Shown here piece after piece: positions 2,356 through 38,414 of a stretch of DNA of 50,578 nucleotides. Both the position numbers and the translations under genes were made by a program. The notes below the pieces were generated by a model, which was given only the letters and a program-made list of their open reading frames with translations, was not told where the DNA came from and made no database searches. This stretch comes from a virus, in the UHGV virus genome UHGV-1367765; one strand, given 5' to 3'. Within the stretch, counting starts at the first letter, position 1. The number at the start of each line of letters is the position of its first letter.

Positions 2356-2593
2356 TGTTGCCTCCGTGACTCTGCCTACATTCGCCCAGCTCCGTACACT
2401 CCAGCAGCAGAAAGCGCCGCGCCCCGTTCAGATCGCGCTGACGTTTCATCCGGTAACCGCGCTGATGACGGGATTGTCCTGGCTTGTATTGCTTCCAGCC
2501 TTCGCTTTTGTGGCTTTCACAATAGCCTGACGGGTCTGTGGTGGTATGGCGGCAGCCACGAACACGGCAGGCTTTTGGGATTCGTGATGGCAT
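2330..2593 (-). CDS. small Cys-rich (zinc-ribbon-like) protein
   Basis: Internal ATG (MPSRIPKACRVRGCRH...) preceded by GGAG; CxxxGC...C.SH pattern; function unknown. Confidence 0.3.
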   Translation of the reverse strand: MPSRIPKACRVRGCRHTTTDPSGYCESHKSEGWKQYKPGQSRHQRGYRMKRQRDLNGARRFLLLECTELGECRQSHGGNNDDFLFAR

Positions 2594-2713
2594 ATGTACT
2601 CCAATGAAGAAGCCACCGACATAGCCTCCTCCATTCATCGTGAAACTATTTTCATCTACCCAGTAATGAATTCTTTGTAGAGTTGTGATCAATACAACTC
2701 ACTAATGGAGAGG

Positions 2714-2735
2714 CTTGTCCAACACGTTGGACAAG
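2714..2735. promoter_or_regulatory. perfect 22-bp palindrome CTTGTCCAACACGTTGGACAAG
   Basis: 10-bp arms around a 2-bp centre, about 120 bp upstream of the ATG of the minus-strand ORF 2330..2593; candidate operator. Confidence 0.35.
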
Positions 2736-3118
2736 TTTCCTGTTTGATTTACTGGACACTATAGAAGGACAGAATGCCTTCATCACTCGAATAACATCAA
2801 TTAAGGAGGTTCAACATGTTTCATTCCACAAATCATCAGGCTGTAATTATGGCTGCATCAGCTTGTACCACAGACCTTTTCCGCTTCACTTTGAGCCTGA
2901 TTCATTTCTACCTGACCGGCTCGCCTCTATCTTTTTAATCCCCGCTTTATCCAAATTGCATTGCCAGAATGCCGACAACAGACTGACATTCAAATCCAGA
3001 CTACCTCCAATAGTCTGACCGTACACCTATATAGTTTTAATTTTCATCAATCCATTTAACTATCGTTTAATTGTTGTCACATAGGATTCTGCCGTTTTTA
3101 ACAATGCAGGATAATAAG

Positions 3119-3412
3119 ATGAAAAAAATGTTGTTTTCTGCCGCTCTGGCAATGCTTATTACAGGATGTGCTCAACAGACGTTTACTGTTGGAAACAAAC
3201 CGACAGCAGTAACACCAAAGGAAACCATCACCCATCATTTCTTCGTTTCGGGAATTGGACAGGAGAAAACTGTTGATGCAGCCAAAATTTGTGGCGGCGC
3301 AGAAAATGTGGTTAAAACAGAAACCCAGCAAACATTCGTAAATGGATTGCTCGGTTTTATTACTTTAGGCATTTATACTCCGCTGGAAGCGCGGGTGTAT
3401 TGCTCACAATAA
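3119..3412 (+). CDS. bor: Bor outer-membrane lipoprotein (serum-resistance, lambda Bor / Iss family)
   Basis: MKKML...LITGCAQQTFTV lipobox; near-identical to lambda Bor as recalled; AGGA RBS; opposite strand to the lysis genes as in lambda. Confidence 0.9.
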   Translation: MKKMLFSAALAMLITGCAQQTFTVGNKPTAVTPKETITHHFFVSGIGQEKTVDAAKICGGAENVVKTETQQTFVNGLLGFITLGIYTPLEARVYCSQ

Positions 3413-3424
3413 TTGCATGAGTTG

Positions 3425-3442
3425 CCCATCGATATGGGCAGC
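3425..3442. terminator. hairpin between convergent bor and Rz
   Basis: TGCCCAT-CGAT-ATGGGCA stem-loop between the two stop codons. Confidence 0.3.
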
Positions 3443-3443
3443 G

Positions 3444-3905
3444 CTATCTGCACTGCTCATTAATATACTTCTGGGTTCCTTCCAGTTGTTTTTGCATAGT
3501 GATCAGCCTCTCTCTGAGGGTGAAATAATCCCGTTCAGCGGTGTCTGCCAGTCGGGGGGAGGCTGCATTATCCACGCCGGAGGCGGTGGTGGCTTCACGC
3601 ACTGACTGACAGACTGCTTTGATGTGCAACCGACGACGACCAGCGGCAACATCATCACGCAGAGCATCATTTTCAGCTTTCGCATCAGCTAACTCCTTCG
3701 TGTATTTTGCATCGAGCGCAGCAACATCACGCTGACGCATCTGCATGTCAGTAATTGTCGAGTTCGCCAGCTTCAGTTCTCTGGCATTTTTGTCGCGCTG
3801 GGCTTTGTAGGTAATGGCGTTATCGCGGTAATGATTAACAGCCCATGACAAGCAAACGATGATGCAGATAACCAGAGCGGAAATAATCGCGGTTACTCTG
3901 CTCAT
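3444..3905 (-). CDS. Rz: i-spanin Rz
   Basis: N-terminus [26 protein letters not shown] matches lambda Rz; start overlaps the endolysin stop. Confidence 0.85.
3503..3685 (-). CDS. Rz1: o-spanin Rz1 lipoprotein embedded in Rz
   Basis: Out-of-frame ORF inside Rz with lipobox LVVVGC and a proline-rich segment, as in lambda Rz1. Confidence 0.8.
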
Positions 3906-4378
3906 ACCTCAATCTCTCTGACCGTTCCGCCTGCTTCTTTGAATTTTGCAATCAGGCTGTCAGCCTTATGCTCGAACTGACCATAACCAGCGCCCGGCAG
4001 TGAAGCCCAGATATTGCTGCAACGGTCAATTGCCTGACGAATATCACCGCGATCAATCATCGGTAAAGCGCCACGCTCCTTAATCTGCTGCAATGCCACA
4101 GCATCCTGGCTTTTCGGAGAGAAGTCTTTCAGAGCAAGCTGCTTACGGTAAGCATCCCACCAGCGTGAAAGAAGCTGATAACGTCCGGCGGCTGTTGATT
4201 TGAGTTTGGGGTTTAGCGTGACACGTTTGCGAGGGTGATCGGAGTAATCAGTGAACAGTTCACCACCAACAATAACATCATAACCGTGGTTACGTGTCGG
4301 TTGTCGCCCGTTATCCGTTCCTTCTGACCATGCCACCATATCCAGGAAAGCTTTACGCTGGGAATTTAGTGCCTGCAT
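3902..4378 (-). CDS. R: endolysin R (lambda-type lytic transglycosylase)
   Basis: 158 aa, near-identical over most of its length to lambda R ([19 protein letters not shown]...). Confidence 0.9.
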
Positions 4379-4381
4379 AAA

Positions 4382-4708
4382 TTACTCCTTCGAGCTACCA
4401 AATTTGTTACCGATTACTCGCATTGCAGCCCCACGAATAGCATCGACACCGATCAGCCCCACGCCACCACCAATGGCAACAGAAAGCGATTTAGGCCATC
4501 CGACATACTCAAGAGCGGATGCAAAGGTCAGCGTCAGAGCGCCACATAGCAAAATCTCGAGCGTTTTTCGCTTCCAGCCACCACCACCGCCAAAATAGGC
4601 GATGCGCAAACCAGCCATAACGATCGACATAATCACTGCACCCAGCGGTGTGTCTCCACGCCACCAGCTCTGGACCAAGTCCAGCCAGGTATTTGGGTTA
4701 TGAGGCAT
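4382..4708 (-). CDS. holin (non-lambda type; start taken at internal ATG)
   Basis: Directly upstream of the endolysin; hydrophobic Gly-rich segments; RBS before MPHNPNTW. Confidence 0.55.
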   Translation of the reverse strand: MPHNPNTWLDLVQSWWRGDTPLGAVIMSIVMAGLRIAYFGGGGGWKRKTLEILLCGALTLTFASALEYVGWPKSLSVAIGGGVGLIGVDAIRGAAMRVIGNKFGSSKE

Positions 4709-4751
4709 TTCGTCATCTCTCACCTCGCGATATTTGCGGGTGCTGTGTTGG

Positions 4752-4777
4752 AAATAAAAAGGCCACGCAACGTGGCC
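4752..4777 (-). terminator. Rho-independent terminator between the methyltransferase gene and the holin
   Basis: GGCCACG-caa-CGTGGCC hairpin followed by a T-run on the minus strand. Confidence 0.5.
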
Positions 4778-4784
4778 ACCAGAA

Positions 4785-5837
4785 TTATTTCCCCACCAGT
4801 TCACTTACCTCTTTCACCGTCTGATTAAACCGCTCTGACTCAAGTTCAACACCTAACGCCCGACGCCCCAGCGCCATTGCTGCTTTTATTGTGGAACCGG
4901 ATCCCATAAAGAAATCAGCAACCAGATCACCAGGTCGACTACTGGCATTGATTATTTGCCGGAGCATATCCGCCGGTTTCTCGCACGGATGTTTACCCGG
5001 GTAGAACTGAACGGGCTTATGCGTCCAGACATCGGTATAAGGCACGGAGACTGATACGGAGAAATAGCGCCGGAGAGATTTAAACTCATCCAGCAATTCA
5101 GAATATTTGCGATTCAGTGAATCATAAGATGCCACCAGCTGGTGGTGTGGTTGTTCCAGTTGTTGTTCCTGAAACTTCTCTGCCGCTATACGGGAAAACA
5201 GTGCCTGTAACTTCCGATAGTCAGCCTCATTCGGCAACTGCCACTGACTGGCACCAAACCAGTGGGAAACCATATTTTTCTTACCTGTGGCTTCGGCAAT
5301 TTGTTTTGCCGTTATACCCAGTTCGGCACGAGCATCCCTGAAATACGATATCAGCGGTGCCATTATGTGCTGTTTGAGTTCCCTTTCTTTTGCCGCATAG
5401 CCGTCACTTTTGCCGCGATATGGCCCCTGGTAATGTTCAGCAAACAGAACGCGCTCTGTGGCAGGAAAATATGCGCGCAGACTTTCTTTATTACACCCAT
5501 TCCAACGTCCGGACGGCTTCGCCCAGATGATATGGTTAAGCACGTTGAAACGTTCACGCATCATGATCTCAATATCAGATGCCAGGCGATGCCCACAGAA
5601 CAGGTAAAGGCTTCCGGCAGGTTTTAACACCCGCCAGAACTGGGCCAGACAGTGGTCCAGCCACTTAAGGTAATCTTCGTCCCCTTTCCACTGATTGTCC
5701 CAGCCGTTGGGTTTCACCTTGAAGTACGGCGGATCGGTAACAATCAGGTCAATGGAATCATCAGGCAGGGACTGAATAAAATGCAGGCAATCAGCGTTGA
5801 TTAAATCAACACTGTTTATTTTTACAGTATTTTTCAT
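4785..5837 (-). CDS. DNA methyltransferase (N6-adenine/N4-cytosine class, DPPY motif)
   Basis: DLIVTDPPYF near the N-terminus and FFMGSGST near the C-terminus; no adjacent restriction enzyme. Confidence 0.8.
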   Translation of the reverse strand: MKNTVKINSVDLINADCLHFIQSLPDDSIDLIVTDPPYFKVKPNGWDNQWKGDEDYLKWLDHCLAQFWRVLKPAGSLYLFCGHRLASDIEIMMRERFNVLNHIIWAKPSGRWNGCNKESLRAYFPATERVLFAEHYQGPYRGKSDGYAAKERELKQHIMAPLISYFRDARAELGITAKQIAEATGKKNMVSHWFGASQWQLPNEADYRKLQALFSRIAAEKFQEQQLEQPHHQLVASYDSLNRKYSELLDEFKSLRRYFSVSVSVPYTDVWTHKPVQFYPGKHPCEKPADMLRQIINASSRPGDLVADFFMGSGSTIKAAMALGRRALGVELESERFNQTVKEVSELVGK

Positions 5838-5971
5838 GGATCAGTAAGCGTAACTCTGGTAGGCTCACTCTGCTTTTGCGCTAAAGCAGTGGGCCGTGGT
5901 TCGCTTGTGACCAGTAAGCATGAGCGAATGGCTGGCAGGTGCTACCAACACCCACCAGCCGCCCATTTTCA

Positions 5972-5999
5972 CAAATTAAAAGCCCTTCATTGCTGAAGG
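5972..5999 (-). terminator. terminator-like hairpin overlapping the 3' end of the 72-aa gene
   Basis: CCTTCA-gcaa-TGAAGG stem followed by a T-rich tract on the minus strand. Confidence 0.35.
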
Positions 6000-6205
6000 C
6001 GTCTGTAACAGCCGAACTGGTAATCTGCCAGCCCCGCCATAACCAGCTGGGTCAGTATTAACTGACAGCGTTCGCGTGAAAGGTATGTGTTTTGTGCAAT
6101 CTCCCCGACTGTTGCCGGTTTGCCGTTTAATTCATTAAAAACAACTTTCGCCGTTTCTGTCATATCTAGCTGTTTTAGCATGTTTTTTACCTTCATGGTT
6201 AACAT
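5987..6205 (-). CDS. small hypothetical protein (72 aa), possible winged-helix regulator
   Basis: ATG start; helix-turn-helix-like segment TVGEIAQNTYLSRERCQLILTQL; upstream of the methyltransferase on the same strand. Confidence 0.4.
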   Translation of the reverse strand: MLTMKVKNMLKQLDMTETAKVVFNELNGKPATVGEIAQNTYLSRERCQLILTQLVMAGLADYQFGCYRRLQQ

Positions 6206-6303
6206 GACATACCAATAACTCTTGTCTAAAAAGCCAGCAAGATAAAAAGTCAGTATTCACGACCACCAGCGTGTTTACCGTACTGCACCAGGTTTACAGG
6301 TAC

Positions 6304-6330
6304 AAAAAAACCCGCTCGACGGCGGGTTTA
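6304..6330. terminator. A/T-flanked GC hairpin (bidirectional terminator-like)
   Basis: AAACCCGC-tcgacg-GCGGGTTT with an A-run on one side, in the AT-rich region upstream of nmpC. Confidence 0.3.
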
Positions 6331-6754
6331 AGCTGTGTGGCGAAGTAACCACTCTTAACAGCATAACCAATTTTTTACGTACGTAAACCTCTAAACAATA
6401 TTTGTGAGAATGATATCGAGTGTTCAAAACACCACCACAATCACATAAGGAAAAATAAACAAATAATCATTAAATAATTTCCGACGTTATTTTCAATGAG
6501 TTTAAATTAAAGAGATGATTTATAGAACACTTATTAATAACAACCTTTAATATAATTTAGCTACCAAATTTATTTTCTTTCAGAGAATAGTCATGTACAG
6601 CATGCAATAGAAAAAGTTCAGATAAAAATAGAGATCTAGATCACAATTTAAATAAGAATCTAAAACTTATATCTTGAATTAATCACATTGATTAGATGAA
6701 TATTTGTCGCGCAGGGCATCATTTTTTAATAAATGTTCAAAAAAAGGTCTCACG

Positions 6755-7852
6755 ATGAAAAAATTAACAGTGGCAATTTCTGCTGTAGCTGCATCAGTAC
6801 TGCTGGCGATGTCTGCTCAGGCAGCAGAGATTTATAATAAAGACAGTAACAAGCTGGATCTGTACGGAAAAGTTAATGCTAAGCACTACTTCTCCTCTAA
6901 CGAGGCAGATGATGGTGACACTACTTATGTTCGTCTGGGCTTCAAAGGCGAAACCCAAATCAACGATCAACTGACTGGTTTCGGTCAGTGGGAATACGAA
7001 TTCAAAGGCAACCGTGCTGAATCTCAGGGTTCTTCCAAAGATAAAACCCGTCTTGCCTTCGCTGGTCTGAAATTCGGTGACTACGGCTCCATCGATTATG
7101 GTCGTAACTACGGTGTAGCATACGACATCGGTGCGTGGACTGACGTACTGCCAGAATTCGGTGGTGATACCTGGACTCAAACCGACGTATTCATGACTCA
7201 GCGTGCAACTGGTGTTGCAACTTACCGTAATAACGACTTCTTTGGTCTGGTTGATGGCCTGAACTTTGCTGCTCAGTATCAGGGCAAAAATGACCGTAAC
7301 GATTTCGAGAACTACACCGAAGGTAACGGTGATGGCTTCGGTTTCTCTGCTACCTATGAATACGAAGGATTCGGCATTGGTGCGACCTATGCAAAATCTG
7401 ATCGTACCGACACTCAAGTCAATGCAGGGAAAGTTCTTCCTGAAGTATTTGCTTCCGGTAAAAATGCAGAAGTTTGGGCTGCAGGTCTGAAATATGACGC
7501 TAACAACATTTACCTGGCCACTACCTATTCTGAAACCCAGAATATGACGGTGTTTGCTGATCACTTCATTGCTAATAAAGCACAGAACTTCGAAGCTGTT
7601 GCACAATATCAGTTCGATTTCGGTCTGCGTCCGTCCGTTGCTTACCTGCATTCTAAAGGAAAAGACTTGGGTGTTTGGGGTGATCAGGACCTGGTTGAAT
7701 ATGTTGATGTAGGTGCAACTTATTACTTCAACAAAAACATGTCTACTTTCGTTGATTACAAAATCAACCTGCTTGACAAAAATGACTTCACTAAAGCACT
7801 CGGTGTAAGCACTGACAACATCGTTGCTGTAGGATTGGTTTACCAGTTCTAA
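6755..7852 (+). CDS. nmpC: outer-membrane porin, NmpC/Lc (OmpC/OmpF/PhoE family), apparently intact
   Basis: 365 aa with signal peptide [23 protein letters not shown] and porin motifs; near-identical to E. coli NmpC as recalled; sits between Q and the lysis genes on the opposite strand, as in DLP12. Confidence 0.9.
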
Positions 7853-7876
7853 TCTGGTTACTAAAAGATATGTTGC

Positions 7877-7893
7877 GGGAGGCGTTGCCTCCC
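7877..7893. terminator. hairpin just downstream of nmpC
   Basis: GGGAGGC-gtt-GCCTCCC stem-loop about 25 nt after the nmpC stop. Confidence 0.35.
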
Positions 7894-7987
7894 CAACATA
7901 TAAGTGGCTCCCTCAAGCCACTTCCTTTAGAAGCACTACCTTGCTTCTGACTATATAAACCTTCTGTTATATATTACCCTTTATTTT

Positions 7988-8015
7988 GGGGGCGTTGACA
8001 CGCCCCATTTTTAAT
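7988..8015 (+). terminator. Rho-independent terminator downstream of nmpC
   Basis: GGGGCG-ttgaca-CGCCCC followed by ATTTTTAATAAAAT. Confidence 0.5.
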
Positions 8016-8039
8016 AAAATTAAGTGAACAATTAGCGTA

Positions 8040-8423
8040 TCAATTGGACTTCGTAACAACGATATCCATCTCTAACCGGATATCTAATGCCATTAACATT
8101 CCTTCAATTATTCCCTCAGCCTTCTGTAACTTTTTCCCGATATAACCATCAGAGCAACAATGCTTGCTTGCAAGTGACATGAATGTCATACCGCCGACAT
8201 AATAATCCACTAGTAAATCATGCAAATCGCTGTTGTTCTTTTTCAGACGGGCCATACATCCGCAAACGATCATCGCGTCATCATCACAACATTGCGGACG
8301 GGATTTTACTTTTGAAGGAAGTACCCCCTTAAAACCAGCAGCAATGGACGACCAGGTCACATCCTCACGGTTATTAGCTGCCCATGCCCCCCAACGCTCA
8401 AGAACCATCTGAATATCACGCAT
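8040..8423 (-). CDS. late-gene antiterminator Q (phage 82 / QuuD type)
   Basis: [18 protein letters not shown]... matches the Q82 family; cysteine cluster; the listed TTG start is 5 codons upstream of this ATG. Confidence 0.8.
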
Positions 8424-8440
8424 CAACTTTCTCCACAAAA

Positions 8441-9436
8441 TCAGGCCAGCACGCCAGTTGCCAGCGCACGATCGATAAAACGAAATATCAACTCCAGCTG
8501 GGAGCCATACTTCTCTTCAAATGCCGCGGTATCCGCATGCAGCTCGTCGTGATGCTTTCTGCACAAAGGCAATACAAAGAGGTCATGCGCTTTTGTACCC
8601 ATTCCGCCCTGACCGTGGCCTATCAGGTGGTGGGGATCATCAGCAGGCTTTCCACAACATGCACACGGCTGTGTCTTAACCCAGCGCGTGTACTTTTCGT
8701 TAACCCAGCGGCGACGTTTTGGGCGTAACATAAAAGACTCCGGCGACTCCGGATCCACTTTCAGCGCCAGCACCTTTTTCACTTTATCCTGGATGATGCT
8801 GGTGGCAGGAACCGAAGGAACAAGGTCACTTTCCCGGGTGACAGACGGCACAACAGGCTTCGGTAATCTCAGTGCCTTACGGGCTGCACTTTCCGGCAAG
8901 GCTCCCGCCAGGTCATTACGAACCAGCCACCAGCACAGTTCCGGCATTGTCACAACGTGACTGTCATCAAAACCGAGATCCCGACGCACAACAGACAACA
9001 CCCAGCGGGCACAGTTATCCGTTGCCATTGATTCCAGCCGTTCCGTGAACTGATCGCGCAGCTGGTTATCGCAGTGCCAGCACAGACGGATTGCACCCGG
9101 CGCGTGTCGCATTGTGGTCATGTTCTCGCTGTGCCAGTCGGAATGAGGCCACTGGCAGCCTTTTTCACGAAGTAACCAGCTTTCAAGACATTCCACGCCA
9201 CCAGCACGACGGATCACTGCCTCATTGCGGAACACGGCCCGAACGGCAGGATCATCCGCCAGCGGTTGTGATGCCGCCGGAACAGCACCACTGGCGAAAG
9301 ATGAATAACGTTCCGGCTCAGGCTCCAGCAGGACACGCCCCTGCATAAACAGGGGCATCAGCTCTGAACCTGGTCTGAACAATACGATCCCCATACGCGG
9401 GGCAATTTCAGGGGTCAGTAGTGCTCTCACGGTCAC
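8441..9436 (-). CDS. prophage protein with Cys/His-rich zinc-binding C-terminus (DUF968-like)
   Basis: CACCGKP...[10 protein letters not shown]...CRKHHDELH motifs; GTG start; family from memory. Confidence 0.45.
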
Positions 9437-9437
9437 C

Positions 9438-10235
9438 TCAATGAACGATATCGAGCAGCTTTAACAGCTCAGGGAATCGGGATTCGAAGAAATGCGGCTG
9501 CGTCTCGCGCGGATTTGCGGGACTGGTGATGTTCTTGCCGAACATGCAGCCTTTCGCTGTCAGCGACCAGAATTTTTTGATGTTGTTAATCGTGGTACGG
9601 CTGTATCGTTCGCGCTGCTCGACGATCCCCAGCTTCACCATCTGGTGATATGCCTGATTAGCCGTCAGGCGTATACCATACTGTTTCAGCAGTGCACTCA
9701 GTGACAGTGTCGGGCGACTTGAGCCATCGTGTGCATCAGCAGGAGCATCAATGGCATAGCGCGGTGCCAGATTCGGTAAGCCAACAGCCTCCTGGAGTTT
9801 CTGACAGGCTCCAAGCACTGAAGAGTTAGACAGGTTTAATTCCCGGCGCATAAAGTCCAGCAGAATCACACCAGCCTGCATCTTGTCAGCAGCCTGTCCG
9901 GATAATTTTTCCGGTGCGCTGGTTACCATATCGAAAGTACGGATCACCTTCAGATGGAATGACGGGCTGATCCACATTGCATAGGCATACACCAGTTCTT
10001 TGCAGACATACGTCCCCTGGTTATTTCCGCCACGAATAACGTTAACTGGCTCTATATTGACCGAGTTGCAAATCTGCAACTCGCTTATTAAACGTTCAGT
10101 TTGCTCATTGCGGAGCCAGAATGCAGGCTTATGCTTATCCAGAGAACCGGCAGCCCTGTGCAGATCGTTCAGGCTGTAACGCCCATAAGCATCACGACGA
10201 ACTTCAATACCATCAATGACCATCAGATTATTCAT
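9438..10235 (-). CDS. KilA-N domain protein
   Basis: N-terminus MNNLMVIDGIEVRRDAYGRYSLNDLHRAAG is KilA-N-like; GAGGAG RBS before this internal ATG. Confidence 0.6.
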   Translation of the reverse strand: MNNLMVIDGIEVRRDAYGRYSLNDLHRAAGSLDKHKPAFWLRNEQTERLISELQICNSVNIEPVNVIRGGNNQGTYVCKELVYAYAMWISPSFHLKVIRTFDMVTSAPEKLSGQAADKMQAGVILLDFMRRELNLSNSSVLGACQKLQEAVGLPNLAPRYAIDAPADAHDGSSRPTLSLSALLKQYGIRLTANQAYHQMVKLGIVEQRERYSRTTINNIKKFWSLTAKGCMFGKNITSPANPRETQPHFFESRFPELLKLLDIVH

Positions 10236-10254
10236 ACTTCGTTTCTCCTCTTGA

Positions 10255-10644
10255 TCAGGCGGCTGCACCCGCCGTTTTCTCGTACTTACTGATAGTGATC
10301 TCGATCTTCCCTCCCGGGATAACCGGTCCCCACTCAACCAGCATTCTTTTCACCTGACTGTCGTCTTCCCACACACCCGCGTGGGTCAGGGCGTCAAACA
10401 GCGCCTTGTTATAGTTGTCCAGATCGCGGATCCGGTTATCCGGAGGAAACAACACGATCTCCACTGAAGCAGGTGCCGACGTTGGTTTCGGCAGGCGACG
10501 TAACTGCTCAACTATTGCTGCGCACGCCGCGCTCTGGAATTTGCGCCCCGCTGCGCTTATCAGACTCTTACCAGCAAACGCCCCTTTGTTGGGGTGTCGC
10601 CAGTACGTGTTCACGCTGGGCGGGAAAGGCAAGATCAGCTTCAT
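10255..10644 (-). CDS. rusA: Holliday-junction resolvase RusA
   Basis: PPSVNTYW and RDLDNYNKALFDAL motifs of the RusA family. Confidence 0.8.
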   Translation of the reverse strand: MKLILPFPPSVNTYWRHPNKGAFAGKSLISAAGRKFQSAACAAIVEQLRRLPKPTSAPASVEIVLFPPDNRIRDLDNYNKALFDALTHAGVWEDDSQVKRMLVEWGPVIPGGKIEITISKYEKTAGAAA

Positions 10645-10967
10645 ACTTTCAGGCCCCTCTCATGTAACCAGTGGGCTGCACGCAGCCTGCCGTTTTCCTC
10701 ACCGGCAAGCAGTGCGCGGATAATCCCGACCGCCTCGCTGTCGTCGTCCTTCACCGCGGTATGAAGCGTTATCCCCCGGGCCACGCCACGCTTTATCGTG
10801 ATGACGCCTTTTTTCTCCAGTGCACGAAGATGCTCTACCGCTGCATTCACTGAACGGTATCCCAGCATGGTTGCCACCTCCTGATTGGTTGGCGGAAAGC
10901 CACGCTCTTTCTGGTAAGAAATCAGCATATCCAGCACCTGCTGCTGGCATTGAGTTAACGTCGTCAT
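10641..10967 (-). CDS. LexA-like winged-helix DNA-binding protein without a peptidase domain
   Basis: TQCQQQVLDMLISYQKERGFPPTNQEVATMLGYRSVNAAVEHLRALEKKGVI resembles the LexA N-terminal domain; stop overlaps the rusA start (ATGA). Confidence 0.55.
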   Translation of the reverse strand: MTTLTQCQQQVLDMLISYQKERGFPPTNQEVATMLGYRSVNAAVEHLRALEKKGVITIKRGVARGITLHTAVKDDDSEAVGIIRALLAGEENGRLRAAHWLHERGLKV

Positions 10968-11455
10968 TACGCCCCCACGTAATTCCCTGACAGATACCAC
11001 TCATCACTCGATACAGCGCGCTTGCTGCTTTTCCGTAAACACTGCTCACGACGCGCCAGAAAATTGTTTCGTTCTGGCTGGGAGTGGCTTTCACGGAATG
11101 CCGCCATCCACACCGTTGCAGCACGACGGTATAAGCCCCTGGACTCCAGTTCTTCTGACTGGCGGGTCAGGCACAAAATCTCCCGCGGGTCGTTAGTGCC
11201 GACATAGAAATTGCGCACAGGTCTGGTTTCACGAACTGGTTGCGGTTCCGGTTCCTGCGCTCTCTCAGTCAGGCGCGGGAAATGTCTGCGTGTATCTCCT
11301 TCACAACGGTGAGCCACACGCCCACTCTGACGTAACTTGCTTGCTGACTGCAGAACGCGCTGCCGTGAGTAACCTGCAAAAGCATCCGCAATGTCTCCGG
11401 AAGTACATCCCGGATGGGCTTCAATGAATTTCTGAACTTCATTCAAAAGACTCAT
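10967..11455 (-). CDS. PerC-family transcriptional regulator-like protein
   Basis: C-terminal LESRGLYRRAATVWMAAF...RREQCL resembles the PerC motif; translationally coupled (TAATG) to the LexA-like gene. Confidence 0.5.
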   Translation of the reverse strand: MSLLNEVQKFIEAHPGCTSGDIADAFAGYSRQRVLQSASKLRQSGRVAHRCEGDTRRHFPRLTERAQEPEPQPVRETRPVRNFYVGTNDPREILCLTRQSEELESRGLYRRAATVWMAAFRESHSQPERNNFLARREQCLRKSSKRAVSSDEWYLSGNYVGA

Positions 11456-11457
11456 GA

Positions 11458-12180
11458 TCACCCCCTGAATCCTGCCGGGATCTGGCTGTAGTCCACGTTG
11501 TCGTAACTGGATTTGAAGTACGGGTCTTCGCGTTTTTCGGTGTACGTGCTGACGGACGGTGATAAGCGCAGGGAAAGCTCATCCCATTTTTCCCGCAACT
11601 TCGACGGGCTGAGCACGTTACGGCACCAGAACGGATCGCGGCTGACGCGGCTGTACATCTCGCAGATTTGTTTGTGAGTACGACCATCCTGCACACACAT
11701 CAGGCGAATTTCGTTTGCCCAGGCTGTCCAGTTCGGTTCTTTGGGACGAACCACCTCGCCGTCACATTCGGCGGCTTGCTCGTACAGGGCGATGATTTTT
11801 TTCCAGAGCCACTGTGCGCAGGTCAAATCATCCTGCGTTCCCCACTGGCGCTTTTTAGGGCTGAATACAACCGCATCAGGATGGCGAGTTAAAAAATCCT
11901 GTTCATCCGTCTGCGTGTCCGGTTGCGAAGCGTCCGGACGAGAAGGTTTTTTATCTGACGGATCATGTTTTGATTTTACTGACGGATCCCCGCCAGATTC
12001 TGACGGGTGAAAACCCGCTTTTTTGCCAGATTTCGACGCATCAAATTTTGACGGGTCAGATTTTGATGCGTCAGATTTTGACGGGTCAGAATCTGACAGT
12101 TGAGAAAATGCCGCTGCCTGAAGCTTCGCAACGTTAAGCTGATAAACATTCGACGCATTGCGGTTATCGGAGTTACGCAA
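11458..12180 (-). pseudogene. 5'-truncated replication-initiator (O-like) remnant with a repeat-encoded Asp/Ser/Lys-rich segment
   Basis: No in-frame ATG near the 5' end (listed start is TTG); iteron-like DNA repeats encode DPSKSDASKSDPSKFDASKS; abuts a divergent plus-strand gene. Confidence 0.35.
11950..12105. repeat. iteron-like direct repeats (about 8 copies of TTTTGACGGGTCAGA-like units)
   Basis: Visible tandem units, each with a small TGAC..GTCA dyad, at roughly 16-17 bp spacing. Confidence 0.5.
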
Positions 12181-12543
12181 ATGCGCATGAATGTTTTCGA
12201 AATGGAAGGGTTTCTTCGTGGGAGATGTGTACCGCGAGATCTGAAAGTGAATGAAACAGATGCTGAATACCTGGTGCGTAAATTCGATGCGCTTGAAGCT
12301 AAATGTGCAGCACAGGAAAACAAAGTAATACCAGTGTCAACTGAACTGCCACCAGCAAATGAAAGTGTTTTGTTATTCGATGCTAACGGAGAAGGCTGGC
12401 TAATTGGCTGGCGTTCTCTCTGGTACACCTGGGGACAAAAAGAAACCGGAGAATGGCAGTGGACATTTCAGGTCGGGAGCCTTGAAAACGTCAATATCAC
12501 TCACTGGGCAGTAATGCCAAAAGCACCGGAGGCTGGAGCATAA
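12181..12543 (+). CDS. DUF551-like prophage protein
   Basis: ATG with GGAG RBS; Trp-rich C-terminus ending NITHWAVMPKAP resembles the DUF551 signature. Confidence 0.45.
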   Translation: MRMNVFEMEGFLRGRCVPRDLKVNETDAEYLVRKFDALEAKCAAQENKVIPVSTELPPANESVLLFDANGEGWLIGWRSLWYTWGQKETGEWQWTFQVGSLENVNITHWAVMPKAPEAGA

Positions 12544-12848
12544 TGACCACTTTTACCGACAAAGAACTGATTAAAGAAATTAAAGAGCGTATCAGCAGCC
12601 TTGACGTGCGAGACGATATTGAGCGCCGTGCTTATGAAATCGCACTCCTATCTCTGGAAGTAGAACCAGATGAACGCGAAGCTTATGAATTATTCATGGA
12701 AAAGCGTTTCGGTGACTTAGTAGATCGTCGGAGAGCAAAAAACGGCGATAACGAATACATGGCATGGGATATGACTCTCGGTTGGATCGTCTGGCAGCAA
12801 CGAGCAGGTATCCATTTTTCAACAATGTCACAACAAGAGGTGAAATAA
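12543..12848 (+). CDS. hypothetical protein (101 aa)
   Basis: ATG overlaps the upstream stop (TAATG); continuous with xis and int on the same strand. Confidence 0.45.
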   Translation: MTTFTDKELIKEIKERISSLDVRDDIERRAYEIALLSLEVEPDEREAYELFMEKRFGDLVDRRRAKNGDNEYMAWDMTLGWIVWQQRAGIHFSTMSQQEVK

Positions 12849-13198
12849 TGGAGCCATACAGCCTCACACTCGATGAGGCCTGTCATTTTCTTAAGATATC
12901 CAGACCGACTGCCATTAACTGGATACGCACAGGGCGTCTTCAGGCAACACGCAAAGATCCCACTAAGAATAAATCTCCTTACCTCACAACACGACAAGCC
13001 TGCATTGCGGCTCTTCAGTCTCCGCTGCATACTGTCCAGGTGAGCGCGGGTGATGGCATAACAGAGGAAAGAAAATGTCACTCTTCCGCAGAGGTGAAAT
13101 ATGGTACGCCAGTTTCACATTGCCGAACGGTAAAAGATTTAAACAGTCTCTTGGAACAAAGGACAAAAGGCAGGCGACAGAACTCCATGACAAGCTAA
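12848..13198 (+). CDS. xis: excisionase-like DNA-binding protein
   Basis: HTH-like N-terminus ([26 protein letters not shown]); immediately upstream of and overlapping int. Confidence 0.5.
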
Positions 13199-14238
13199 AG
13201 GCTGAAGCATGGCGGGTCAGCAAACTTGGTGAAATACCTGATATAACGTTCGAGGAAGCGTGTGTCAGGTGGCTTGAAGAGAAAGCACATAAAAAATCAC
13301 TGGACGATGACAAAAGCCGGATCGGATTCTGGCTTCAACATTTCGCAGGAATGCAACTAAGAGACATTACTGAATCAAAAATTTATTCAGCAATGCAGAA
13401 AATGACGAACCGGCGTCATGAGGAAAACTGGAAACTCAGGGCAGAAGCATGCAGAAAAAAAGGGAAACCTGTTCCAGAATACACGCCAAAACCAGCGTCC
13501 GTTGCAACGAAGGCTACGCATCTTTCATTTATAAAGGCCCTACTAAGAGCCGCAGAGCGTGAATGGAAAATGCTGGATAAGGCACCAATTATTAAAGTGC
13601 CTCAACCAAAGAATAAACGGATCCGCTGGCTGGAGCCCCATGAAGCACAAAGGCTGATTGATGAATGTCCGGAGCCATTAAAGTCTGTTGTTGAATTTGC
13701 ACTGGCAACAGGCTTAAGACGCTCGAACATCATCAACCTTGAATGGCAACAAATAGACATGCAGCGCCGGGTGGCATGGATAAACCCGGAAGAGAGTAAA
13801 TCAAACCGCGCAATTGGCGTTGCGCTGAATGATACTGCATGTCGCGTTTTGAAAAAACAAATCGGGAATCATCACCGTTGGGTATTTGTGTACAAGGAAA
13901 GCTGTACCAAACCAGACGGAACGAAAGCGCCAACAGTAAGGAAGATGCGGTATGACGCAAACACAGCCTGGAAAGCGGCGCTGAGACGGGCTGGTATTGA
14001 TGATTTCAGATTTCACGACTTGAGACACACCTGGGCAAGTTGGCTGGTTCAAGCCGGAGTCCCGTTGTCAGTGTTACAGGAAATGGGAGGCTGGGAGTCT
14101 ATCGAAATGGTTCGTCGATATGCTCACCTTGCACCTAATCACCTTACCGAACACGCACGGCAAATAGACTCGATCCTGAACCCATCGGTCCCAAATTTGT
14201 CCCAGTCAAAAAATAAGGAAGGTACTAATGATGTGTAA
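13075..14238 (+). CDS. int: tyrosine integrase (lambdoid Int family)
   Basis: 387 aa with the R..HxxR..Y catalytic pattern ([10 protein letters not shown]...VRRYAH); very similar to E. coli lambdoid prophage integrases as recalled; 3' end faces the att core. Confidence 0.9.
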
Positions 14239-14252
14239 CTTATTGATTTAAA

Positions 14253-14298
14253 TGGTGCCGATAATAGGAGTCGAACCTACGACCTTCGCATTACGAAT
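14253..14298 (-). other. att core: 46-nt copy of the 3' end of tRNA-Thr (thrW-type), not a complete tRNA
   Basis: Minus strand reads ...ATTCGTAATGCGAAGGTCGTAGGTTCGACTCCTATTATCGGCACCA; similarity to the tRNA stops upstream of this; 14 bp after the int stop. Confidence 0.7.
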
Positions 14299-38258: not shown

Positions 38259-38334
38259 TGGTGCTGGTTAACGGACTTGAACCGCTACCCATTCGCTTAC
38301 AAGGCGACCGCTCTACCATTGGAGCTAAACCAGC
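38259..38334 (-). tRNA. tRNA-Thr (anticodon UGU inferred)
   Basis: Hand-folded cloverleaf: 7-bp acceptor stem, D-stem GCTC/GAGC, anticodon loop CTTGTAA, T-loop TTCAAGT, 3' ACCA. Confidence 0.55.
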
Positions 38335-38339
38335 ATGTT

Positions 38340-38414
38340 TGGCGGGACAGCGTGGACTCGAACCACGATAAGAAGGTTAACAGCCTTCCGTAATGACCTT
38401 TATACGACTGACCC
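38340..38414 (-). tRNA. tRNA-like gene, anticodon GUU (Asn) inferred; possibly degenerate
   Basis: Cloverleaf with anticodon loop CTGTTAA, T-arm CGTGG-TTCGAGT-CCACG, 3' GCCA, but a U-U mismatch in the acceptor stem and a 3-bp D-stem. Confidence 0.4.

Follow-up and report, generated by a model that had tools for sequence, protein, structure and literature searches.

Neighbouring yfdN and peptidase-less LexA-like genes of a prophage remnant: known families in a non-obligate arrangement

Introduction

PerC of enteropathogenic Escherichia coli (EPEC) and PchA, PchB and PchC of enterohaemorrhagic E. coli (EHEC) are activators of ler/LEE1 that have the PerC domain (PF06069) in common with YfdN, a protein of E. 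coli K-12. The pch genes of EHEC are located in horizontally transferred DNA and respond to prophage induction. PchA–C activate ler, and PchD and PchE barely do so (PMC5931665). In the same work yfdN is termed 'the K12 unique PerC homologue'; it was removed from the ler reporter strain as a precaution and was not itself assayed (PMC5931665). A phage-encoded truncated homologue of LexA is known from GIL01, where gp6 binds a palindrome overlapping the −35 region of the late promoter P3 and activates P3 (PMC6182141). Here we analyze two adjacent small genes in the virus genome UHGV-1367765, of which the whole stretch of 50,578 nucleotides is called the window below. One encodes a YfdN protein with a PerC domain, and the other a protein of 108 amino acids with a LexA-type DNA-binding domain and no S24 peptidase domain.

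The best reading of this locus, to which we assign a probability of about 0.8, is that of an already annotated, non-obligate gene neighbourhood in a defective prophage. Both genes belong to known families and are named as such in public annotation, and their order is standard for the phage group; confidence in gene identity and organisation is high. As it stands the locus is of little consequence, the same family names being attached to thousands of genomes. What the present analysis adds is a winged helix of YfdN's own, a distinct family of proteins combining a LexA winged helix with a helical hairpin and linked to rusA, the non-obligate nature of the yfdN/LexA-like pair, and the placement of the window copy in an immunity-deleted remnant. 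Neither YfdN nor the peptidase-less LexA-like protein is characterised in the literature searched, though both are present in about half of the complete E. coli genomes.

Organisation and spread of the locus

The genes and junctions concerned, in window positions, are:

11458 to 12180, minus strand: O-like replication gene (phrog_391), 5'-truncated, upstream of yfdN
10967 to 11455, minus strand: yfdN-family gene, 162 amino acids, ATG at 11455, TAA at 10969–10967
10965 to 10969, minus strand: TAATG overlap of the yfdN stop and the LexA-like start, read directly
10641 to 10967, minus strand: LexA-like gene without S24 peptidase, 108 amino acids, ATG at 10967–10965, TGA at 10643–10641
10641 to 10644, minus strand: ATGA overlap of the LexA-like stop and the rusA start, read directly
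10255 to 10644, minus strand: rusA, Holliday-junction resolvase (Pfam RusA PF05866 and synteny), ATG at 10644–10642
8438 to 8040, minus strand: Q antiterminator gene

With yfdN, the LexA-like gene and rusA all on the minus strand, the first two genes fall between the O-like gene and Q, the equivalent of the nin region. The nin-type location given by the original prediction, which was made from the letters of the DNA alone, is fair because of this position, and the stop-to-start overlaps that it described (TAATG, then ATGA into rusA) are there in the sequence. An alternative yfdN start, GTG at 11461, gives a protein of 164 amino acids and is the model used by RefSeq. Translational coupling of yfdN and the LexA-like gene is plausible. 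The TAATG junction is also found in about 25 related loci, and a GCATG junction with an ATGA overlap in 58 of 84, i.e. in most of those without TAATG. At the LexA-like/rusA junction 81 of 82 related loci have GTATGA, and the four-base overlap is also present at the distant loci L087 and L089–L091. Four-base or one-base overlaps are likewise seen at the O/yfdN, dam/LexA-like and LexA-like/rusA junctions. Since overlaps recur along most of the gene run, they are a property of a compact operon and no evidence for joint action of the YfdN and LexA-like products.

Of 5426 complete E. coli genomes, 2845 contain the 2 kb block from O to rusA at 95–99% identity. The block is also present in 50–63 phage records that include the Shigella phages SfII, SfIV and SfV as well as cdtI, mEp460 and Stx2a/Stx2c phages. 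The SfII genes are labelled 'PerC transcriptional activator family protein' and 'LexA DNA binding domain protein'; the RefSeq labels in E. coli genomes are 'yfdN: PerC family transcriptional regulator' and 'LexA family transcriptional regulator/protein'. The SfII, SfIV, SfV, cdtI, mEp460 and Stx2c phages resemble the window in having the same genes, 95–99% identical in nucleotide sequence, in the same O to rusA arrangement. Most phages of the SfII/SfV group differ by the presence of dam between the two genes, which is missing from SfIV and the window. Most records of the phage group are complete genomes, including those of isolated phages, whereas the window copy is a deleted remnant.

Conservation of gene order

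The neighbours of the LexA-like gene were scored in 80 IMG/VR loci plus genomic loci; a scan of genome contigs yielded 5 loci only and contributed little. The adjacency of yfdN and the LexA-like gene seen in the window recurs in 29 of 83 related loci. In 54 of the 83 (65%) a phage dam gene of about 650 bp lies exactly between them, overlapping the LexA-like start as ATGA. The Shigella flexneri locus L002 encodes a YfdN only 62% identical to the window copy next to a LexA-like protein that is 97% identical; the alleles of the two genes recombine independently.

An exhaustive HMMER search for relatives of the LexA-like protein returned full-length forms of 105–118 amino acids at 40–50% identity, the named ones coming from Cronobacter, Kosakonia, Enterobacter and Salmonella, together with N-terminally extended forms of 135 and 165 amino acids from Cedecea/Enterobacter and Klebsiella. 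Five distant loci were sampled. There was no PerC-domain gene in four of them, while rusA was downstream in all five and directly adjacent in three. In the loci of the homologues (40–50% identity) from Enterobacter, Cedecea and a sequencing-run contig rusA is downstream, adjacent in the first and the last, and no PerC-domain gene was called. The gene orders are:

L089–L091: O, LexA-like, rusA, Rha/ANT, DUF968, Q-type antiterminator
L087: O, dam, large methylase, LexA-like, rusA
L092: P, helix-turn-helix (HTH) gene, toxin/immunity insert, small open reading frame (ORF), LexA-like, small ORF, rusA, DUF968, Q
L088 (Cronobacter): O, PerC of 78 amino acids, dam, LexA-like, reverse ORF, rusA

In L088 a gene for a single-domain PerC protein of 78 amino acids fills the slot of yfdN. 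The insert in L092, an Enterobacter prophage, is reverse-oriented (1363–2732), encodes RNase-toxin and immunity-like proteins, and breaks the early operon.

Because the distant loci keep rusA and mostly have no PerC gene, the recurrent partner of the LexA-like gene is rusA, not PerC. The 108-residue protein is a member of a conserved enterobacterial phage family, with rusA downstream at every locus examined. The gene order in K-12 agrees with a loose association. There, yfdN (b2357, in the cryptic prophage CPS-53/KplE1) lies as in the window directly downstream of an O-like gene (yfdO) and encodes the same PerC domain, but next to it come remnants of dam (yfdM) and of tail-fibre genes, and both the LexA-like gene and rusA are missing.

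These gene orders do not bear out the original prediction of a dedicated coupled pair, that is, of two functionally linked, translationally coupled regulators which could cross-regulate host genes or genes of other prophages, for example virulence loci as PerC and Pch proteins do for LEE. The TAATG and ATGA junctions would suit such a pair, the PerC family offers the precedent of ler activation (PMC5931665), and PchE affects curli and flagella; the two genes are, moreover, also adjacent in the diverged Citrobacter locus L004 (YfdN 45% and LexA-like protein 67% identical). However, dam intervenes in 65% of the sampled relatives, distant LexA-like genes occur without a PerC neighbour, K-12 has yfdN alone, and the alleles reassort independently. 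In addition, Pch proteins outside group 1 barely affect ler, and the operon has here lost the immunity region and presumably its promoter too. A functional pair is therefore very unlikely. The two are neighbours that assort independently within the early operon of a lambdoid prophage of the SfII/SfV/CPS-53 type.

The defective prophage

A near-identical prophage with an intact immunity region is present in E. coli strain 5735 (L001). One strand of it carries the cI-like ymfK (annotated as LexA family), two small ORFs, yfdR, yfdS, yfdT, xis and int and ends at tRNA-Thr, forming the PL side. The other strand carries the cro-like ymfT, the cII-like ymfL, DUF4222, O, yfdN, the LexA-like gene, rusA, KilA-N, DUF968 and Q, followed by an oppositely oriented porin gene, a small ORF and the genes for a DNA methylase and for lysis. 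Other relatives have Rha/ANT in the place of KilA-N and, optionally, dam between yfdN and the LexA-like gene. Comparison by blastn matched L001 4255–13967 to window 2454–12166 and L001 17760–19895 to window 12163–14298, which places a deletion as follows:

12163 to 12166: deletion junction, about 3.8 kb of L001 (13967–17760) missing in the window

The missing segment comprises the first ~73 codons of O, DUF4222, ymfL, ymfT, ymfK, the two small ORFs (one of them frameshifted), yfdR and about 19 bases of the next gene. In agreement with this, the O-like remnant covers positions 75–298 of the 298 of the phrog_391 profile, with homology ending at about 12166; an intact O, as in L002, has 313 amino acids. 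The prophage also diverges from L001 beyond the lysis genes, homology starting at window position 2454. The exact junction in one piece was absent from the 5426 complete E. coli genomes. Different deletions of this region are found in CPS-53 of K-12 and in three further strains.

By this comparison the window prophage is a defective remnant without immunity region. If lambda is taken as a guide, the early promoters would have been located between ymfT and ymfK, which are divergently oriented, and the early promoter was presumably lost along with the immunity region. A consensus promoter scan upstream gave one weak match, no better than chance, and no convincing promoter was seen upstream of the truncated O gene. 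With the immunity region deleted and the early rightward promoter presumed to lie there, expression of the two genes in the window is uncertain.

It is conceivable that in the window both ORFs are silent leftovers of a decaying prophage without a current function in the cell. The loss of the immunity region together with the 5' part of O, the shortening of the prophage beyond the lysis genes (homology from 2454) and the lack of a convincing upstream promoter all agree with this, as does the absence of the junction from the 5426 complete genomes, which suggests recent or lineage-restricted decay. However, neither ORF is disrupted, and alleles identical to the LexA-like protein of the window are widespread. 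Genes of cryptic prophages such as yfdN of K-12 can be transcribed, and loss of the cI-like repressor could relieve any residual promoter. On balance, complete silence has real weight as an explanation, yet we hold it to be somewhat less probable than its opposite.

YfdN and its PerC domain

Profile searches assigned the two proteins to the PerC and LexA DNA-binding families, neither of them to an unrelated family. For YfdN, the PerC profile PF06069 matched residues 98–152 with 37 bits (cut-off 22.6), covering profile positions 5–59 of 90, in line with the PerC-like C-terminal motif of the original prediction. The PHROG assignment is phrog_1324 'transcriptional activator' (E 1.8e−76), and RefSeq names the gene yfdN, 'PerC family transcriptional regulator'. 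The protein of the window is 94% identical to K-12 YfdN over 164 amino acids. Its AlphaFold2 (AF2) model, with a mean predicted local distance difference test score (pLDDT) of 77, refines the picture by an additional N-terminal domain:

11276 to 11455, minus strand: YfdN residues 1–60, predicted winged helix-turn-helix (AF2 pLDDT 83–92)
11000 to 11203, minus strand: YfdN residues 85–152, PerC domain with three predicted helices (PF06069 and AF2)

The N-terminal part is modelled as helices 3–13, 19–25 and 31–44 followed by a beta hairpin (47–60). According to Foldseek this fold is nearest to the winged helices of ArsR, MepR, MecI and BlaI, with a root-mean-square deviation (rmsd) of about 2 Å over some 60 residues and weak E-values; weak MarR-type matches were also obtained in PHROGs and NCBIfam. 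A disordered, variable linker (residues 63–84) leads to the PerC domain, where the predicted helices are 90–105, 109–122 and 126–149 (pLDDT 87–94 over residues 91–140) and the motif LES.GL.RRAAT.W is invariant. With 162 amino acids, including a winged helix and a linker, YfdN does not match the single-domain size of PerC and PchA–C (~90–105 amino acids; pchA–C have 315 bp, encoding about 104). The model indicates that YfdN is a two-domain relative of the PerC and Pch proteins of about 100 residues. It could act as a separate transcription factor that pairs a DNA-binding domain of its own with a PerC module.

On the function of YfdN the literature searched yields only entries in overexpression and transcriptome lists, and the functional data found for the PerC family relate to other homologues, i.e. 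the Pch proteins. A role as an ANR-type anti-activator was set aside and survives merely as a lead, the NCBIfam score of 18.6 bits being below the cut-off of 32 and the ANR paper checked giving no support.

The LexA-like protein

The profile LexA_DNA_bind (PF01726) matched residues 1–65 of the 108-residue protein with 69 bits (cut-off 23.7), and a profile search for Peptidase_S24 gave no match in this protein. The LexA equivalog model TIGR00498 scored 70 bits, below its cut-off of 110.95, and only its positions 1–91 of 203 were covered. A LexA N-terminal winged helix without S24 peptidase, as had been proposed from the translation, is thereby confirmed. The PHROG assignment is phrog_362 'transcriptional repressor' (E 1.1e−58), and the protein is 100% identical to the LexA-family coding sequence of L001 (WP_000210159.1, 'LexA family transcriptional regulator'). 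A phmmer search gave an E-value of 7e−16 to 1LEA, with about 50% identity to residues 2–70 of E. coli LexA, and Foldseek superimposed the N-terminal domain on DNA-bound E. coli LexA (3JSO) with an rmsd of 1.0 Å at 50% identity. The two parts of the protein are:

10764 to 10967, minus strand: LexA-like residues 1–68, winged helix, with recognition helix RSVNAAVEHLRAL
10659 to 10745, minus strand: LexA-like residues 75–103, helical hairpin tail (AF2 helices 75–87 and 91–103, pLDDT 87–90)

The AF2 model has a mean pLDDT of 84, with helices 6–22, 28–35 and 40–52 and strands 56–58 and 66–68 in the DNA-binding domain; residues 71–74 form a short linker of low confidence. LexA contacts the bases of its operator through S39, N41, A42, E44 and E45 (PMC3091678). 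Four of these five residues (S39, N41, A42 and E45) are retained in the LexA-like protein, and E44 is replaced by valine.

Host LexA (TIGR00498; 3JSO, 1LEA) and the LexA-like protein thus have in common an N-terminal winged helix, about 50% identical and superimposable at 1.0 Å, and four contact residues. The LexA-like protein differs in lacking the S24 peptidase/dimerisation domain, the catalytic Ser119/Lys156 and a conserved Ala-Gly site, and has a helical hairpin of 35 residues in place of the C-terminal domain. The hairpin is kept in the distant relatives (105–118 amino acids, 40–50% identity), and on the basis of the model we infer that it replaces the C-terminal dimerisation domain of LexA. 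Mean dN/dS against the window allele is about 0.06 for the LexA-like gene, 0.11 for rusA and 0.15 for yfdN; the LexA-like gene is under strong purifying selection.

A LexA cleavage site in the tail was considered, as HMMER aligned LLAGE with VAAGE of LexA (Ala84–Gly85). It was rejected because Ala-Gly is not conserved (relatives have LLANE, LLVGE, VERES or IDDQP) and the segment is predicted to be helical. A DNA-binding domain shared with the phage's own cI-like repressor of the YmfK type was also discarded, BLASTP showing no similarity. The literature searched gave nothing specific on an enterobacterial phage protein with a LexA domain. Among the proteins returned by the exhaustive search, P0252, P0253, P0268, P0272, P0273, P0276 and P0279 are possible single-chain pseudo-dimers of about 140–350 amino acids, each with two LexA DNA-binding-domain stretches.

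Possible targets and function

The relationship with LexA raises the question of SOS-like operators, for which the original prediction had proposed a search. In the window the minimal pattern CTGT-N8-ACAG is not above chance, with 1 site found and 0.68 expected. The site itself is a close match to the longer consensus:

5810 to 5829: SOS-box-like palindrome CACTGTTTATTTTTACAGTA, one mismatch to TACTGT-W8-ACAGTA

This is the single CTGT-N8-ACAG site of the window, and none of 100 shuffles gave a match with two or fewer mismatches to the 20-mer TACTGT-W8-ACAGTA. Of the two patterns, only the longer one is significant, and host LexA explains the site equally well. CACTGTTTATTTTTACAGTA falls in codons 3–9 of a late-region gene for an N6/N4 DNA methyltransferase (5837 to 4785, minus strand), and a promoter search upstream of it gave nothing convincing. 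Conservation of the site extends to Citrobacter phage phiNP and, in part, to a Klebsiella phage. As far as sequence can tell, it is a candidate target of either host LexA or the LexA-like protein. Co-occurrence of the methylase box and the LexA-like gene (27 of 29 phage records) was judged uninformative, since the genomes are closely related and only about 5 kb separates the two. An ORF of 69 amino acids, MKVKNMLKQLDMTETAKVVFNELNGKPATVGEIAQNTYLSRERCQLILTQLVMAGLADYQFGCYRRLQQ, directly precedes the methylase gene at window 5987–6196 (minus strand). Its product looks like another small winged-helix protein; it has no Pfam match and is annotated as hypothetical in the relative.

A perfect SOS box (12/12), TACTGTTTTTATATACAGTA, is located within the cI-like S24 repressor gene of L002 (1103–1122), in the part encoding the linker that joins the HTH and peptidase domains. 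The same box is present in L010, L022, L055 and others, and with 2 mismatches in L004 (996–1015). The prophages with this cI-internal box are relatives from Shigella, E. coli and Citrobacter whose immunity module is of another type. The distant loci L087–L091 are mostly without a strong box. In L092, positions 3031–3080 just upstream of the LexA-like operon contain a terminator-like hairpin, a promoter-like sequence (TTGCAA-17-AATAAT) and a weaker CTGT-N8-ACAG box.

In view of the above, the following working can be proposed. The gene run from the cro-like gene to Q would be one operon, read from the early rightward promoter and used after induction or infection in relatives with an intact immunity region; the remnant in the window would be unlikely to express the two genes at phage-induced levels. 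The LexA-like protein would be a DNA binder that RecA* cannot inactivate, because it has neither an S24 domain nor a conserved Ala-Gly site. It may dimerise through its helical tail and recognise an SOS-box-like palindrome of the CTGT type. In lytic growth it could then regulate phage promoters, SOS-box promoters or both, paralleling gp6 of GIL01. The part of this explanation that concerns the DNA target is doubtful, and we put it forward as a tentative suggestion.

gp6, the only characterised analogue that was found, resembles the LexA-like protein in being a LexA DNA-binding domain without C-terminal domain that is encoded by an early gene of a temperate phage. Its identity to the LexA of its own host is 44%, as against about 50% for the LexA-like protein and E. 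coli LexA. The differences are that GIL01 is a tectivirus and not a lambdoid phage with Q, and that gp6 in the published homology model is little more than a winged helix, while the protein of the window has a conserved helical tail. In a tblastn search of 50,697 phage records with the 108-residue protein (E ≤ 1e−3), 63 records were found, with no Bacillus phage or tectivirus in the organism summary or among the 40 matches shown. Since gp6 is not detectable by tblastn, the likeness is functional in kind only, and the two proteins are probably independent captures of the 5' half of the respective host lexA.

Several points weigh against the reading proposed here. The strong boxes, although real oddities, sit in a late methylase gene and within a cI gene, not at obvious promoters, and could equally well reflect host LexA or coincidence in A/T-rich coding sequence. 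Position 44, a glutamate in LexA, is non-acidic throughout the phage family, so the specificity may differ from that for the SOS box. The analogy with gp6, too distant for detection by tblastn, would be one of function only. With respect to silence of the remnant, the promoter scan was a crude consensus scan, and the genes could still be transcribed by read-through or from weak promoters; and microarray data for strain CFT073 place yfdN among the nitric-oxide-responsive genes.

Two more specific functions can be considered for the LexA-like protein. In the first it is an uncleavable mimic of host LexA that holds SOS boxes and represses the SOS regulon while RecA* is active during phage replication. 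Its targets could be functions under LexA control in rival prophages, colicins, or phage genes with an SOS box, for instance the methylase gene at 5810–5829. The resemblance to the LexA domain (~50% identity, 1.0 Å, four of five base contacts kept), the absence of an S24 domain and of a conserved cleavage site, and the strong purifying selection are all in agreement with mimicry. So are the near-consensus boxes in the phage group, i.e. the one at 5810–5829, the 12/12 box in cI of the L002 type and the weaker box beside the promoter-like sequence of L092. However, E44 is systematically replaced in the phage family, a different and unrelated tail sets the geometry of the dimer so that half-site spacing may differ, host LexA explains the SOS boxes equally well, and most of the distant loci (L087–L091) have no strong box. 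We regard mimicry as unlikely, and it is distinctly improbable that SOS-box binding by a RecA-proof mimic lets the phage, or a cryptic remnant in about half of E. coli, damp or re-time the SOS response and SOS-controlled rivals. Were SOS boxes indeed bound by the LexA-like protein, phages would have in it a widespread means of overriding the host DNA-damage response, with a bearing on prophage induction, Shiga-toxin release and antibiotic-induced SOS; the genes also occur in Shiga-toxin and serotype-converting phages.

In lambdoid phages the Q antiterminator is the usual switch for late transcription. The second possible function, that of a phage-specific activator or timer of later genes which like gp6 binds its own non-SOS palindrome near a phage promoter, has to be set against this, since phages that carry Q need no further activator a priori. 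The LexA-like gene always belongs to the early operon, with rusA, DUF968 and Q downstream of it, and the altered position 44 fits a changed specificity; gp6 shows that a LexA DNA-binding domain alone, encoded in an early operon, can activate a late promoter (PMC6182141). However, no candidate operator was identified and gp6 is not a detectable sequence relative, which together with the presence of Q makes an activator of this kind quite unlikely. For the locus as a whole, an annotated gene neighbourhood in a defective prophage is the preferred reading.

Additional observations

A link of the locus to defence systems was considered and dropped, PADLOC matches being marginal only. Window 14298–50578, which starts where homology to the relative's tRNA-Thr attachment site stops, is a second, unrelated prophage-like region. 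It encodes a DnaB-type helicase of its own (43726 to 42275), a tape-measure-like protein with an SLT domain (24130 to 22049), and tRNA-Thr and tRNA-Asn (38259–38414). The arrangement looks like two tandem elements at one attachment site.

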